A stretch of DNA of 64,000 nt from Bacilli bacterium (GTDB lineage: Bacteria; Bacillota_I; Bacilli_A; RF39; UBA660). The position numbers and the translations under genes are program-made. This document shows, piece by piece, positions 24,401 to 52,178 of the stretch; position 1 is the stretch's first letter, and each line of letters starts with the position of its first letter. The stretch spans positions 594 through 64,593 of the forward strand of contig JAZQBG010000045.1 of assembly GCA_045545595.1 (NCBI GenBank), written 5' to 3'. Under the pieces are notes generated by a model, which had not been told where the DNA came from, made no database searches, and saw nothing but the letters and a program-made list of their open reading frames with translations.

Positions 24401-24761
24401 TGGTGGAGATGAGGGGTAGCGAACCCCTGTCCAAAAATAAATCATTAGTACATCTACAAGCTTAGTCAATTTTTAAATTTCCTAATAGATAAAACAAATT
24501 GACAAACCTATCTATTAGTAAGTCTTTAAATATTCGTTATTCTAGCAAGACAATAGAATAATATAGTTCACTAAATATGAGCCCCTAATATTCCCCGTGA
24601 ACAAAGGAATAAAAGAAGCTTACACCAACCCTAAATTAATTAGGCAAAAGAAGGTGCAAAGTTATAATTATTTTTTCCGTTTATTTTTCGGTTTTGGAAT
24701 TAACGCATACCTGCGACTTGCAGTAGTTAACTCATTATTTCTGTCGAATCAATTCATCCCC
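24401..24761 (-). ncRNA. ssrA: tmRNA (transfer-messenger RNA, SsrA)
   Basis: Minus-strand 5' end GGGGAUGAAUUGAUUCGACAG and 3' end GGACAGGGGUUCGCUACCCCUCAUCUCCACCA. Acceptor stem pairs with G3:U wobble (alanine identity element). T-arm GGUUCGCUACC and encoded CCA. Internal tag frame ends ...KNNYNFAPSFA then TAA. Downstream of smpB as expected. Confidence 0.9.
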
Positions 24762-41486: not shown

Positions 41487-41900
41487 TTAATTTTTAGGTT
41501 TTTTTGCACCGTATTTACTACGACCTTGTGCACGGTTTTGAACTCCTTGAGTATCCATTGTTCCACGGATAATGTGATAACGAACCCCGATTAAGTCTTT
41601 AACACGTCCACCACGAATTAATACAGCACTGTGTTCTTGTAAGTTATGTCCGATTCCTGGAATATAAGCTGTAACTTCATATCCATTACTTAAACGTACA
41701 CGGGCATATTTACGTAATGCTGAGTTTGGTTTCTTAGGTGTCATTGTTCCAACACGAGTACATACTCCACGTTTTTGTGGTGAATTAGTTTTAGTTGTTT
41801 TTCTTTTTATAGTATCTAGACGAATTCCAAGTACTGGAGATTTACTTTTTCTAGTTTTTTTACTTCTGTTTTTTCTTACTAATTGATTAATTGTAGGCAT
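41487..41900 (-). CDS. rpsL: 30S ribosomal protein S12
   Basis: [10 protein letters not shown] canonical S12 start at internal ATG 41900. The ORF track's extension to 41930 is unlikely. Confidence 0.95.
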
Positions 41901-42100
41901 TGTAATTCTTCCTCCTTTCTTTGCACACATCCTGGTGTATCAAACACCCTATAAATATAAGTTCTATCCATCAGGATAAAACCTATAAAATTTATGCATA
42001 ATTACTATAACACTTTATTGTATGCATGTCAATTAAATTTAGACATTTTTGCCAATATATTAAGATTTAAAATATTTTAATATAATTTAACTATAAATCA

Positions 42101-42129
42101 TTGTGACACAAACAATTGTTTGTTATAAT
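42101..42129 (+). promoter_or_regulatory. sigma-A-type promoter of small-peptide locus 2
   Basis: TTGTGA -35, 17-nt spacer, extended -10 TGTTATAAT. The ttgtttgttataat block is shared with the promoter at 18083-18111. Confidence 0.4.
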
Positions 42130-42201
42130 GGTATTGGGTACATTTGAAATAAGATGCTTTCTCTTTCTTGATTTTAGAATCAATGAAAGGTGGTGATAAT
42201 T

Positions 42202-42279
42202 ATGACAAAAAGAGAAATCTATTTGTACACAATAATTATCCTATTATTCTTTATTGTAATAACATTACTTTATAGATAA
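42202..42279 (+). CDS. 25-aa hydrophobic peptide (type I toxin-like small membrane protein), paralog of 18175..18258
   Basis: AAAGGTGGTGA SD then ATG. Sequence MTKREIYLYTIIILLFFIVITLLYR. Leader acatttgaaataag is homologous to locus 1. Followed by imperfect hairpin 42286-42317 and terminator 42329-42371. Confidence 0.4.
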   Translation: MTKREIYLYTIIILLFFIVITLLYR

Positions 42280-42328
42280 TAAAAACATCTGATTTCAACA
42301 ACTGTTGATTTCAGATGCAACCCAATGA

Positions 42329-42371
42329 GGGAATGCATTTGATTCTGGCAATCAAATGTACCCTTTTTTTT
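42329..42371 (+). terminator. rho-independent terminator of small-peptide locus 2
   Basis: gggaatgcatttgatt...aatcaaatgtaccc stem followed by T8. Confidence 0.5.
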
Positions 42372-42433
42372 ATTTTATGCAAGTTTCCTTGACATATTCA
42401 GTTTAACACATATTTAATTATAATTCAATTACT

Positions 42434-42934
42434 TTAGTTTAAATAGTAATCTTTTACTCCTTCAGTTGAGTAGTTATCACATTTTAAATAAGGAGTAAAT
42501 TCTATACTTTCTCCATTTTTCTTAGCTTCTACATAACCATTACAATTATCTTTTGACATTTCTGTTTTTAAATTAGAATCTACTTCTAAAAGATGTGGAT
42601 AATCAACAATTGTTAGATTATTACTTATGTTATTTTTATATGCTTCTGCAATATATTTAATTGCATCATTAGTTAATTTCGCTTCTAAATCTTTATAATT
42701 AATTGAATCCGTAGTACTACTTTCATTATTATTAGTATTTGTTGTTACCTCTTGAGTGGCGTTAACATCTGTTTTTTCTTCAACCTTAGCTTTTTGTTCA
42801 TTGACTTTTAAATTTTCTTTTAACCCGTTTGATAGTCTTATTATCATGACTGAAGAAAATAATAGACAAATTATGATAAGTGATACTATAAGCAAGAAAT
42901 CAGATAACCCCCAACCTCTATTATTTAATTTCAA
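42434..42934 (-). CDS. hypothetical membrane-anchored protein with degenerate pilin-like N-terminus, in the position normally held by ybxF/L7Ae between rpoC and rpsL
   Basis: N-terminus NNRGWGLSDFLLIVSLIIICLL resembles a class III prepilin signal (G-W-G-L-S-D) followed by a hydrophobic helix. S/T/N-rich middle. Confidence 0.4.
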   Translation of the reverse strand: MKLNNRGWGLSDFLLIVSLIIICLLFSSVMIIRLSNGLKENLKVNEQKAKVEEKTDVNATQEVTTNTNNNESSTTDSINYKDLEAKLTNDAIKYIAEAYKNNISNNLTIVDYPHLLEVDSNLKTEMSKDNCNGYVEAKKNGESIEFTPYLKCDNYSTEGVKDYYLN

Positions 42935-42989: not shown

Positions 42990-43024
42990 GTATTAAAAAA
43001 GAAAATGCATTATTCTGCATTTTC
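42990..43024 (-). terminator. rho-independent terminator overlapping rpoC stop
   Basis: gaaaatgca/tgcattttc 9-bp stem spanning the TAA stop. T-run follows on the minus strand. Confidence 0.6.
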
Positions 43025-46000
43025 TTCTGTTTCTATTTTAATTTCATCTTCTACAGTATCTGCAAGTAATTGTTCTTCTAATGCTTCAATAGGTTCATCA
43101 TCGTTATAATTAGTAGTTAATTCGAAGTCAACATTTGAATATTGTCTTGCCCCAGTACCAGCTGGTATTAATTTACCAATTATTACGTTTTCTTTTAGAC
43201 CTTGTAATGGGTCAATTTTTCCTCTAATAGATGCATCAGTAAGGATTCTTGTTGTTTCTTGGAATGAAGCTGCTGATAAGAATGAATCAGTTTCTAATGA
43301 AGCTTTAGTAATACCTAGTAAGATAGGTCTACCAGTAGCTGGTTTTTTACCTTGTAAGATTACATCTTTATTAGCTTCAGTAAATTCATTAATTGAGATT
43401 AATGATCCTGGTAAAATTTCTGTATCTCCACCTTCTGAAATTCTTATCTTAGAAATCATTCTCTTAGCGATAATTTCGATATGTTTATCACTGATATCAA
43501 CACCTTGAGAACGGTATACTTTTTGGATTTCTTTAAGTATATATTCTTGAACAGTTATAGGGTCTGTTACTGCAAGTAATTCTTTAGGGCTTATTGCACC
43601 TTCAGTTAATCTGTCTCCTGCAGAAACCACATCTCCTTTTGCTACACGAAGTTTAGCACCATATAATGTAACATGTTCTCTAGTTTCAACATCGTTTTTA
43701 ATATATACTTTCCATTTACCATTTGCTTCATCAATTTTAGTAATTTTACCATTGATTTCAGCAATAGTAGCTTTACCTTTTGGATTTCTAGCTTCAAATA
43801 ATTCTTGAACACGTGGAAGCCCTTGTGTAATATCGTCTCCGGCAACCCCACCTGTGTGGAATGTTCTCATGGTTAACTGTGTACCAGGTTCACCAATTGA
43901 TTGAGCAGCCATAATACCTACTGCTTCACCAGTTTCAACTATATTACCTGTTGCAAGGTTTTTACCATAACATTTTCTACAAACACCATGTTTTGTTTTA
44001 CATGTTAATAGTGTTCTTATTTCTACTGAAGTAATACCAGCTTTGATAATTTTATCAGCGATATTTTCAGTAATTAGTTCATTTTTATCGATAATCATTT
44101 CTTTAGTTTCAGGATGTAATACTTTTTTGTTTGTATATCTTCCTAAAATTCTATCATATAATGTTTCGATTACTGTATTAGATTTTTCATCAACAAATTC
44201 TTTAACTGTTTGACCTTGGATAGTTCCACAGTCATCTTCTTTAACAATTACATCTTGTGCAACGTCTACTAGACGACGAGTTAAGTAACCAGAGTCTGCT
44301 GTTTTAAGGGCAGTATCGGCACTACCTTTTCTCGCACCGTGTGTAGATAAGAAGAATTCTGATACTGATAATCCTTCTCTAAATGAAGATGTAACTGGGA
44401 TTTCAACAGGTTCACCATTTGGTTTTTGCATCAATCCACGCATACCAGCAAGTTGGGTAAAGTTTGAAATGTTACCTCTCGCTTTAGAGTTCATCATCAT
44501 GAAGATTGAGTTATCAACGTTTTTAGGGTCTTTAGCGATTTCTTCAAGTTCATCAGAAACCACTTTTTTAGCGTCATTCCATGTTTGAATTACTTTATTA
44601 AATCTTTCTGATTCAGTAATTAAACCTCTTTGGAATTGTTTGTTAATTTTCTTAACCATGTCATTACTTGATTTTAATACATCTTCTTTTTTGCTACTAG
44701 TAACAATATCTGTTACAGCAATTGATATACCAGCTTTAGTAGAATATTTAAATCCTAAATCTTTAAGTTTATCAAGCATTACTGATGTTTCAGTAGTTTT
44801 ATATCTTTTATAAACTTGTGCGATTATACTTTCTAAAGTTCCTTTAACGAATGGTTTTGTAATAGGCATATTTTTAATTTCTTCAGGAATGTTTTTACCT
44901 TTTTCAATAAAGAATTTGTTTGGAGTGAATGTTTCGATGTTTTTATCAGATGGTTCATTTATGAACGCAAATGAATCAGGTAATATTTCATTGAAGATTA
45001 ATTTACCTACTGTTGTTACTAAGTATTTTCCTTTTTGTGATTCAGTAAATACTTTATGTTTAAATGAATCAACAGGAATAGCTATACGTGTATGTAGAGT
45101 TAATTCTCTTCTTTCGTAAGCCATTAATGCTTCATTAGCATTTCTAAATACTCTACCTTCTCCTTCTAATCCAGGTTTTTCAATACTTAAGTAGTAGTTA
45201 CCTAAGATCATATCTTGTGAAGGTGTAACAATTGGTTTTCCATCCTTAGGGTTAAGGATGTTATTAGCACCAAGCATTAATAATCTTGCTTCAGCTTTAG
45301 CTTCTTCTGATAGTGGTACATGGACAGCCATTTGGTCACCATCGAAGTCAGCGTTGAATGCCGGAGTAACAAGTGGGTGAAGTCTTATAGCTTTTCCACC
45401 TATTAAAACTGGTTCGAATGCTTGAATACCAAGTCTATGTAGAGTTGGTGCACGGTTAAGTAATACTGGATGTTCTTTGATTACTTCTTCAACAATGTCC
45501 CATACTCTTTCGTCTTTGTTTTCAATTAATTTTTTAGCAGCTTTGATATTGCTTGCGATTTCTTTTTCTACTAAACCATGAATAACATGTGGTTTGAATA
45601 GTTCAAGAGCCATATCTTTAGGAATACCACATTGGTACATTTTTAAACTTGGTCCTACAACGATAACACTACGTCCTGAATAGTCAACACGTTTACCAAG
45701 TAGGTTTTGTCTAAATCTACCTTGTTTACCTTTAAGCATACTACTTAAAGATTTAAGTGGTCTATTTCCTGCACCTGTAACGTTTCTTCCACGTCTACCA
45801 TTATCGAATAATGCGTCAACTGCTTCTTGAAGCATACGTTTTTCATTTTGAATAATGATTGTTGGTGCGCCTAATTCTATTAATTTCTTTAAACGATTAT
45901 TTCTGTTGATAATACGTCTATATAAGTCGTTTAAGTCACTAGTTGCGAATCTTCCACCATCTAATTGAATCATTGGTCTTAATTCTGGTGGAATTACTGG

Positions 46001-46693
46001 TAATGCTTCAATAATCATCCATTCTGGTCTATTTCCAGATTGACTGAATGCATCTAACACATCTAATCTTTTGATTAAACGAGTTCTTTTTTGTCCTTGA
46101 GCATCTTGTAATTCTTTTCTTAATTCTTCTAGTTCTTTATCAACATCAACTTCTTGTAATAATTTTTTAATGGCTTCCGCACCCATTCCAACTTCGAATC
46201 CATCTCCATATTTTTCATAATATGCTCTGTATTCTTTGTCAGAAAGTGTTTGTTTCTTTTCTAATGGTGCGATACCTGGATTAATTACTACGTAAGAAAC
46301 GAAATATAATACTTCTTCTAGATCTCTTGGTGACATATCTAGAACTAATCCCATACGAGATGGAACTCCTTTAAAGTACCAAATATGTGATACTGGAGTA
46401 GCTAGTTCAATATGTCCCATTCTTTCACGTCTAACTTTAGAACGTGTAACTTCTACACCACAACGGTCACAGATTATATTTTTGTAACGTAATCTTTTGT
46501 ATTTTCCACAAGAACATTCGAAATCTCTTGTTGGTCCAAAGATTTTTTCACAGAATAATCCATCACGTTCTGGTTTTAAAGTTCTGTAGTTAATTGTTTC
46601 TGGTTTTTTGATTTCCCCATAAGACCATGATCTGATTTTTTCAGGAGATGCAAGGGAAATTTTTAATGCTTCAAAATTATTAACTTCTAACAT
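43010..46693 (-). CDS. rpoC: DNA-directed RNA polymerase subunit beta'
   Basis: 1227 aa with zinc-binding CxxC motifs and NADFDGD catalytic motif. Confidence 0.98.
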
Positions 46694-52011: not shown

Positions 52012-52178
52012 ACTACACCTCCTCTATTTATAAAATACCGTATTAAAAAACCTTTATATGCGTAGACATACAAAGGTTTTAAAGACTTTATCTTTAAGTT
52101 CCTCGGTAGGATTATTAAGCATTAGCCCCTACTGTCTACGGTACTTCGTTCACGTTGTTTATTATAATATATTTTTTA
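52012..52178 (-). promoter_or_regulatory. putative L10 (rplJ) leader autoregulatory RNA region
   Basis: About 165-nt structured, comparatively GC-richer untranslated spacer between rplA and rplJ, as in Firmicutes L10 leaders. Assigned by position only. Confidence 0.4.

Follow-up and report, generated by a model that had tools for sequence, protein, structure and literature searches.

Architecture of the locus upstream of rpsL

We analysed a 64,000-nt stretch of contig JAZQBG010000045.1 from a Bacilli bacterium (assembly GCA_045545595.1, positions 594 to 64,593), referred to here as the window. In this low-GC window, a 530-bp gap separates rpsL (41487-41900, minus strand, followed by rpsG and fusA) from a gene for a membrane-anchored protein of 166 amino acids (aa; 42434-42934, minus strand), which is preceded by rpoC (43010-46693, minus strand). 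The gap contains an element referred to here as locus 2 (approximately 42101-42428), and a paralogous element, locus 1, lies elsewhere in the window. Our data suggest that locus 2 is likely a type I toxin-antitoxin-like module and a member of a large family, in which the mRNA of a small membrane peptide would be opposed by a convergent antisense RNA.

On the plus strand of locus 2, a predicted sigma-A promoter with a start at approximately 42136 is followed by a 66-nt leader, a Shine-Dalgarno (SD) sequence (AAAGGTGGTG) and an open reading frame (ORF) of 25 codons. The terminator (GGGaaTGCATTTGATT/AATCAAATGTACCC then T8 in the DNA) would close a toxin mRNA of approximately 236 nt (42136-42371). 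On the minus strand, 3' of the toxin terminator, there is a second promoter, from which an antisense RNA of approximately 114 nt is predicted to run from approximately 42393 to 42280. Its predicted terminator is a hairpin of 7+5 bp with a 2x2 internal loop. Coordinates for both loci are given in Table 1.

The initial annotation had listed a promoter, a leader, a 25-aa ORF, a hairpin (42286-42317) and a terminator (42329-42371) here, and all of these are present. It described the hairpin as imperfect, which holds, and missed its predicted role as terminator of the convergent antisense RNA. Similarly, the interval that it assigned to the locus, 42101-42371, covers the toxin unit but leaves out the antisense promoter and the antisense 5' hairpin, which extend to approximately 42428.

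Table 1. Predicted features of locus 2 and its paralogue, locus 1 (window coordinates)
Feature	Position	Strand	Details
Locus 2 toxin promoter, TTGTGA-17-TGtTATAAT	42101-42129	+	-35 42101-42106; TG 42121-42122; -10 TATAAT 42124-42129
Locus 2 long-distance interaction, 5' strand	42136-42157	+	GGGUACAUUUGA (42136-42147) pairs with 42352-42363; AGAUGC (~42152-42157) pairs with terminator 5' arm
Locus 2 SD-burying hairpin	42163-42195	+	anti-SD CUUUC 42163-42167 with GAAAG 42185-42189; SD AAAGGUGGUG 42186-42195
Locus 2 membrane peptide ORF (25 aa), MTKREIYLYTIIILLFFIVITLLYR	42202-42279 (including stop)	+	putative toxin; purifying selection in family
Locus 2 antisense RNA intrinsic terminator	42281-42317	-	hairpin 42317 to 42286, then UUUUU 42285-42281
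Locus 2 toxin mRNA terminator	42329-42371	+	stem GGGaaUGCAUUUGAUU / AAUCAAAUGUACCC; U8 42364-42371; 3' arm 42352-42363 is the long-distance 3' strand
Locus 2 antisense RNA 5'-terminal GAAA-tetraloop hairpin, CAAGGAAACUUG	42380-42391	-	compensatory change in locus 1, GAAG...CUUC
Locus 2 antisense promoter	42400-42428	-	-35 TTGAAT 42428-42423; 17-nt spacer; TG 42408-42407; -10 TAAACT 42405-42400
Locus 1 toxin unit	18083-18346	+	-35 18083-18088; -10 18106-18111; leader GGAACAUUUAAU 18119-18130; SD 18162-18167
Locus 1 ORF, MNKKDFLILSLVIIIFLLLFLLFIVLI	18175-18258	+	hairpin 18265-18294; long-distance 3' strand 18328-18339; T-run 18340-18345
Locus 1 antisense unit	18257-18403	-	-35 TTGATA 18403-18398; TG; -10 TATATT 18380-18375
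Locus 1 antisense 5' hairpin, AUGAAGGAAACUUCAU	18366-18351	-	terminator hairpin 18294-18265, then AUUUCUUUU

Locus 2 belongs to a large family in gut Bacilli

Loci 1 and 2 align through the promoter, leader and terminator and for approximately 60 nt past the terminator. The exact 14-mer TTGTTTGTTATAAT occurs in the window only at these two loci, and no third copy was found within the window. Together with the extent of the homology, which spans leader, terminator and downstream block, this rules out that the shared block is just a common promoter type. Locus 1 had been placed in the rpsL region by the initial annotation; in fact it lies 24 kb from rpsL, at 18083-18350. The degenerate consensus proposed for the shared block matches locus 2 at 42116-42139 with three mismatches, slightly out of register.

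We scanned 185,579 species genomes with the 3'-end block common to both paralogues, TTTTATTTTATN(1-2)AAGTTTCCTT, and found at least 118 stretches. Among the matches listed, nearly all are gut metagenome-assembled genomes (MAGs) labelled as uncultured Bacilli, Tenericutes, Mollicutes or Erysipelotrichaceae; they were sampled from rabbit, goat, roe deer, mouse, chicken and human and include Mycoplasma sp. CAG:877. A family profile identified at least 155 copies in 122 loci. Among the 122 loci listed, 25 contain two to four copies each, mostly as same-strand tandem arrays with a spacing of 350-480 bp. An independent scan of metagenome contigs with the 5' leader pattern gave 79 further full-length copies, and since only 35 of these 79 carry the exact 3' motif, the family exceeds both scans. 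In all, more than 230 further copies were found in other genomes, mostly in more than 100 gut MAGs, while the window holds two only. Family copies are diverged and their sites are scattered and non-syntenic. A test profile built from 71 copies from other genomes, with no window sequence, matches the window at two places only and end to end in both: 18119-18350 (E 7e-43) and 42136-42371 (E 8.5e-32). These counts, and the purifying selection described below, bear out the proposal that the two loci are not chance ORFs but members of a small gene family, the non-coding parts of which are conserved as well.

Searches of Pfam, NCBIfam and Rfam, both at gathering thresholds and with E up to 10, gave no family match for the peptides of the two loci or for their RNAs on either strand; a match to the NCBIfam HokA model (E 0.12, with 12 bits where the cutoff is 89) was rejected as noise. 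Both conserved blocks gave no matches among viral contigs and a distant blastn search with locus 2 gave none among plasmids and phages, so there is no sign of a plasmid or phage vehicle. In full-text literature searches, no publication describing such a family from this lineage came up, and of the 24 families named in the T1TAdb paper none is from this lineage. The best reading of these sequences is that locus 2 and its relatives represent a new family of type I toxin-antitoxin-like modules, a known kind of system.

The peptide is small, hydrophobic and conserved as protein

The locus 2 peptide consists of a charged N-terminus (MTKRE) and a hydrophobic helix of approximately 20 residues. A strict filter, which demanded an SD motif, an ATG start and a correctly spaced stop codon, was passed by 84 of 116 copies, and the peptides of these are 20-35 aa long. 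The peptides fall into subfamilies, including MTKRExSxFIIILLLFFIVITLLFK, MxKKDFLILSLVIIIFLLLFLLFIVLI, MKTKTFIIKVLKLIAIILFLLIIMIVVIKK, MRKSEKYLCTIIILLIIVILIILIKIVPTV and MKKKDLLISFLIIIIILLIVSLMILSIKK, and every subfamily combines a basic/acidic N-terminus with a single hydrophobic helix. Between closely related pairs, differences at the three codon positions number 500, 267 and 763, and 62% of single-nucleotide codon changes are synonymous compared to 22% expected at random. Our data indicate that the ORF is under purifying selection. Type I toxins are typically hydrophobic peptides of the membrane type, smaller than 60 aa and encoded on a short mRNA of their own, and this is what we found at locus 2. 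ORFs of 25-30 codons escaped gene callers; at the closest ortholog of locus 2, on contig L009, nothing had been called.

The 5' end of the toxin mRNA pairs with its own terminator

Minimum free energy (MFE) folds of the predicted toxin mRNAs reach -69.2 kcal/mol at locus 2 (z -8.07 compared to shuffles) and -65.4 kcal/mol at locus 1 (z -6.36), and in both the 5' end closes onto the 3' end. At locus 2, the first 12 nt are the perfect complement of UCAAAUGUACCC, the 12 nt directly before the U-tract; the corresponding pair in locus 1 is GGAACAUUUAAU / AUUAAGUGUUCC. Altogether, the first 22 nt or so of the mRNA pair with both terminator arms. Across the family the 5' partner begins where transcription is predicted to start, 5-9 nt 3' of the -10 box, and covaries with the 3' partner (examples are GGAUACAUUUGA/UCAAAUGUAUCC, GGAUACGUUUGA/UCAAACGUAUCC, GGAAUAUUUAGU/ACUAGGUAUUCC and GGAAGCAUUUUA/UGAAAUGCUUCC).

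When 73 distinct mRNAs were analysed with RNAalifold, the 5'-3' helix was the sole family-wide structure. It comprises 16 pairs in two helices, and 14 of these pairs show compensatory double changes. We found 95.6% of cells paired, compared to 82.5% after shuffling and 30-42% after sliding the partners by 1-3 columns; the corresponding values were 197, 66 and 9-29 for double-change cells and 0.616, 0.353 and 0.082-0.150 for the covariation score. Observed values were reached in 0 of 500 shuffles. Helix 1 was itself used for sequence selection (at least 10 of 12 positions paired), so its share in these values is biased; helix 2, formed by the leader with the terminator 5' arm, lies outside the selection and is 94% paired, with five of six pairs compensated. 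Cells that are not Watson-Crick pairs are almost all G-U on the sense strand while A-C is rare, and therefore the constraint acts on the sense RNA rather than on the DNA or the antisense strand. The leader had been noted as conserved, which it is; the reason, which had been missed, is that it pairs with the 3' end of its own mRNA.

In terms of duplex energy, the leader pairs with its own 3' end at -31.0 kcal/mol on average, compared to -8.4 kcal/mol for the terminator region folded alone. Since the terminator hairpin and the long-distance helix share nucleotides, they are mutually exclusive alternatives. Consistent with such alternative structures, 54 of 64 copies have a terminator hairpin that is weaker as sense RNA than as antisense RNA; the same comparison for hairpin 1 gave no significant difference (p 0.07).

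The SD sequence is predicted to be buried locally. By partition function, the SD core has a family mean unpaired probability of 0.17, compared to 0.46 in 34 ordinary genes of the window (p 8.6e-10), and the value is equally low in the nascent transcript, the full-length mRNA and an mRNA with its 3' untranslated region (UTR) blocked. In the L009 ortholog the SD hairpin is kept by compensatory changes (CCUUC/GAAGG), with a different inner stem. An mRNA folded to restrain translation is a further hallmark of type I systems, and the models predict one here, with a buried SD and a 5'-3' interaction.

A convergent antisense RNA is predicted to cover the 3' UTR

The minus-strand promoter is TTGAAT-17-TGtTAAACT at locus 2 (8 of 12 consensus positions), TTGATA-17-TGaTATATT at locus 1 (18403..18375) and TTGAAT-17-TGtTATAAT at the same position in the L009 ortholog. 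A weight matrix from 129 copies has TTG at 64-74%, an extended TG at 70% and a -10 box of T87 A87.. A72 T91, with A-rich sequence upstream. The family consensus is TTG..A, 17 nt, TGnTAttAT, and locus 2 is in register with it. In these 129 copies the promoter stands at a fixed distance from the invariant AAGGAAACUU, which is flanked by a covarying C/G pair. The closing pair of the GAAA-tetraloop hairpin at the predicted antisense 5' end covaries as well (CAAG...CUUG versus GAAG...CUUC).

At the other end, a minus-strand hairpin with a U-tract is present in 56 of 64 copies, at a median of 5 nt past the stop codon; seen from the plus strand, a conserved A-tract that includes the stop codon precedes the imperfect hairpin. 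The predicted antisense RNAs are approximately 114 nt (locus 2) and 112 nt (locus 1) with fold z values of -4.5 and -5.2. They would be fully complementary to the toxin 3' UTR and end at the hairpin beside the stop codon, so that the overlap with the toxin gene is confined to the 3' UTR and the stop codon. We also considered the leader as a second antisense target, as in the Fst and SprA1 systems, and rejected it: leader and antisense RNA pair at -17.1 kcal/mol compared to -16.8 for permuted partners.

Four arrays (L051 935-1645, L019 7063-7687, L085 6747-7820 and L126 55-905) combine toxin and hairpin subfamilies; in L051, for example, an MNKKDF-type unit stands beside an MHKKDF...TLVK-type unit. 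Because toxins and hairpins vary within these arrays, in contrast to the antisense promoter and 5' hairpin with their near-identity, our data suggest that antisense specificity resides in the variable hairpins.

The antisense 5' end also holds an AUG with an in-frame UAA, namely AUGUCAAGGAAACUUGCAUAA at locus 2 (6 codons, 42380-42398, minus strand) and AUGAAGGAAACUUCAUAA at locus 1 (5 codons, 18351-18368, minus strand). This sequence is probably a by-product of the AUG...CAU stem and less likely a leaderless mini-ORF.

Remnants lose the toxin 5' part and keep the antisense part

Among non-edge copies ascertained by their 3' end, 22 of 136 have lost the toxin 5' part and kept the antisense part. 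Among copies ascertained by their 5' end, 79 are complete and the antisense part is missing in 1 of 80. The asymmetry is significant (Fisher p 3.6e-4), with the reservation that the comparison sets two differently ascertained samples side by side. Such an asymmetry is as predicted for an addictive toxin/antidote pair. Fifteen metagenome matches that resembled orphan leaders were rejected as chance, since the sequence diverges right past the pattern.

The rpsL site offers an unbiased example of this decay pattern, because close relatives were picked there by contigs encoding an identical RpsL. Contig L009 carries an intact ortholog with 86% identity and the peptide MTKREICLYTIIILLFFIVITLLYK. 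Nine contigs (L001-L008 and L010) carry a remnant at the same site, in which the 3' UTR and antisense part are kept and the promoter, leader and first half of the ORF are gone (for example, L001 2660-2816, minus strand). Between the remnant and a 160-aa gene, these relatives carry an insert of approximately 1.7 kb with additional genes, one of which encodes a GCHY-1 domain.

L233 (reverse strand, approximately nt 95-520) is the sole copy found with an intact toxin unit but without the antisense part. It is broken inside hairpin 1 by an IS-like insertion, the first ORF of which resembles the N-terminus of an insertion sequence (IS) transposase (MRKKLTNKRKKELLNNKYILTFTKDH...).

Comparison with known type I systems

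In Bacillus subtilis, the type I antitoxins RatA, SR4, SR5 and SR6 bind the 3' ends of toxin mRNAs and promote decay by RNase III (PMC6562991). Gram-positive type I families with a 3'-side antisense RNA have a convergent layout, and the layout here is the same (PMC8594479). Among known systems bsrE/SR5 is closest in size and bsrG/SR4 is closest in mRNA fold.

The bsrE/SR5 and bsrH/as-bsrH toxins have 29-30 aa and one transmembrane helix and are encoded on mRNAs of approximately 255-285 nt; decay of these mRNAs is promoted by a convergent 3'-side antisense RNA that base-pairs at their 3' end (PMC6562991). The modules described here encode 25-30 aa on mRNAs of approximately 230-245 nt, and the same mode of pairing and decay is predicted. 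Unlike bsrE and bsrH, they show no similarity to those systems in peptide or RNA sequence or profile, their antisense RNA is shorter (approximately 114 nt versus 163-200), and the overlap spares the body of the ORF. Furthermore, bsrE and bsrH reside on prophage-like elements, whereas the loci here are chromosomal in uncultured gut Bacilli.

In the bsrG mRNA, helix P1 joins 5' nt 1-35 to 3' nt 232-262, the SD is held in a stem, and SR4 binds the 3' end (PMC3834814). The same fold logic is predicted here, with a closed mRNA, an SD in a stem and a 3'-end antisense RNA. However, P1 lies beside a separate terminator stem-loop, whereas here the leader pairs with the terminator's own two arms, an unusual twist. 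SR4 binding also tightens the bsrG SD stem, while a 3' UTR block leaves the predicted SD accessibility unchanged here. The toxins of bsrG/SR4 and txpA/RatA have 38-59 aa and are unrelated to these peptides. Even at E up to 10, the curated protein and RNA models for BsrE/BsrH, BsrG/TxpA and YonT matched neither strand of the two loci.

Fst/RNAII (par of pAD1) and SprA1/SprA1AS share convergent transcription and a 3'-side antisense RNA that spares the ORF (PMC8594479), as well as translation limited by 5' structure. Their RNAs interact mainly through 5' complementary repeats outside the overlap, while here leader-antisense pairing is no better than permuted. They also use a shared bidirectional terminator, whereas two separate terminators are present here. 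No match to Pfam Fst or to Rfam was found. The Gram-negative hok/sok and AapA1/IsoA1 systems likewise lock a full-length toxin mRNA by a 5'-3' interaction, a recurring type I theme (PMC8594479). There, the translation signals stay occluded by the long-distance pairing until the 3' end is processed, and the 5' region is the target of the antisense RNA. In the present family, the SD is predicted to be buried locally, independent of the 3' end, and the antisense RNA lies at the 3' side.

A type I toxin-antitoxin-like module as the likely identity of locus 2

Given the peptide, the folded mRNA, the antisense gene and the remnants, we consider it likely that locus 2 is a type I toxin-antitoxin-like module. 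We infer toxicity and transcription from the sequences. In the proposed mechanism, the peptide would damage the membrane once made. The end-to-end helix would shield the mRNA from 5' and 3' exonucleases, so that the mRNA would be long-lived and poorly translated. The antisense RNA would pair with approximately 100 nt of the 3' UTR and strip the 3' strand off the leader; in computed folds, blocking the 3' UTR lifts the unpaired probability of the 5' end from 0.05 to 0.51. The resulting duplex of approximately 100 bp would be destroyed by RNase III-type cleavage, and the freed 5' end would be open to 5' exonucleolytic RNases. Control would then work through the 3' end by promoting decay, in the manner of the B. 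subtilis antitoxins.

Several points weigh against this assignment. The starts and 3' ends of both RNAs are predictions, and toxicity of the peptide and its rescue by the antisense RNA are deduced from the architecture. Known toxin and antitoxin families in Pfam, NCBIfam and Rfam show no match to either the peptides or the RNAs. At locus 2, the antisense -10 box (TAAACT) falls short of the family consensus. The selection on helix 1 and the two kinds of ascertainment behind the decay asymmetry, both stated above, count here too. Lastly, blocking the 3' UTR moves the predicted SD accessibility only from 0.18 to 0.17, and therefore a translational effect of the antisense RNA is unsupported; an SR4-like tightening of the SD stem by antisense binding was rejected on the same values.

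A non-toxic small membrane protein, such as a membrane-protein modulator or a stress peptide, with a level tuned by the antisense RNA, would be equally compatible with the coding signal and the RNA architecture, and the lack of homology to proven toxins, with toxicity only deduced, speaks in its favour. Nevertheless, the family has several copies per genome, tandem arrays of divergent copies and scattered, non-syntenic sites; its frequent remnants lack only the 5' half of the peptide unit, with almost none lacking the antisense part; and the SD is predicted to be constitutively buried. Multicopy arrays, scattered sites, remnant asymmetry and a buried SD are typical of type I systems and unusual for a housekeeping small protein, and we regard this alternative as unlikely.

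It is very unlikely that locus 2 is primarily a cis-regulatory or insulating element that ends transcription of rpoC and the 166-aa gene or regulates the divergent str-operon promoter. The position lends itself to such a role, since minus-strand transcription leaving the 166-aa gene (end at 42434) would meet the antisense RNA's terminator (42317-42281) as its first intrinsic terminator, and the rpsL promoter (TTGACA-17-TATAGT, 42032..42004) lies back to back with the toxin promoter, approximately 70 bp from its -35 box. We rejected this as the primary role because the paralogue and more than 230 other copies lie away from rpsL, and because close relatives with an identical RpsL keep only the remnant, together with the 1.7 kb of inserted genes. 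Since the family occupies many unrelated sites, the position beside rpsL is incidental. A by-product terminator role is possible, and copies located where genes end, for instance locus 2 with the rpoC/166-aa unit on one side and the str promoter on the other, may have become terminators or insulators by co-option.

A miniature inverted-repeat transposable element (MITE)-like mobile element, with the inverted repeat of approximately 25 nt (leader versus terminator region) as terminal repeats and an incidental ORF, would account for a unit of approximately 235 bp between inverted repeats, many copies per lineage and the 37-nt direct repeats around locus 1, but is extremely improbable given that repeat mismatches are almost all sense-strand G-U, which points to selection on RNA rather than DNA, that two promoters are conserved beyond the repeats, that the ORF is under purifying selection, that copies are diverged rather than near-identical, that flanking repeats exceed chance only in array members and locus 1, and that plasmid, phage and viral collections gave no match.

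Returning to the type I toxin-antitoxin-like module, one extension of the proposed mechanism concerns the leader, for which pairing with the terminator arms (-31 kcal/mol) is stronger than the self-pairing of the terminator (-8 kcal/mol). On this ground the leader could be a built-in mimic of the antitoxin core, such that the mRNA carries its own competitor for the antitoxin site, although we think this rather unlikely. If true, three partners would compete for the 3' end, namely the terminator hairpin while transcription is under way, the leader later on, and the antisense RNA, and the ratio of antisense RNA to folded mRNA would set a sharp threshold, a new type I control logic. The leader might also contribute to termination or read-through.

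Type I systems are thought to be phylogenetically narrow, partly since their peptides are too short for annotation (PMC12390103). The family described here is present, with several copies per genome, in a large and uncultured gut lineage with small genomes, sampled from rabbit, goat, deer, mouse, chicken and human. With more than 200 variants of one RNA architecture with covariation, it provides a natural mutational set for studying 5'-3' closure and antisense specificity, and these variants could yield parts for orthogonal RNA regulators. Within the window, two seemingly empty intergenic regions would become four genes.

Surroundings of the two loci

The stretch from the stop codon of the 166-aa gene (42434-42436) to the antisense promoter of locus 2 is free of terminators; the first minus-strand terminator 3' of this gene is the antisense RNA's own (42317-42281). 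Read-through out of the rpoC/166-aa unit would likewise be antisense to the toxin 3' UTR. The 166-aa protein gave no match in an exact look-up.

Locus 1 is flanked by 37-nt direct repeats (18034-18070 and 18413-18449, 86% identity, ..CTTAGTAATTTTTTACAC..). In 102 copies, flanking repeats exceed chance only in tandem-array members and locus 1. We considered the repeats of locus 1 as attachment sites or target duplications and rejected this, as the excess over chance is confined to arrays; they are probably inter-unit spacers left by a former array. Like locus 2 with the 166-aa gene, locus 1 directly follows, in the same direction, an ORF with Sel1 repeats (18448-18828). Approximately 550 bp upstream of locus 1 is a gene for a 185-aa protein (16983-17540, minus strand) with an N-terminal Cro/C1-type helix-turn-helix (HTH) domain (Pfam HTH_3, E 5.5e-19) and a transmembrane segment.

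Elsewhere in the window, the only Rfam matches at gathering level are tmRNA (24401-24761, minus strand, 142.5 bits) and a ribosomal protein L10 leader (52036-52159, minus strand, 82.5 bits). A direct-repeat family at 16433-16702, with units of approximately 135 nt, offsets of 63, 9, 54 and 9 nt and 63-75% identity, is probably internally repetitive coding sequence.

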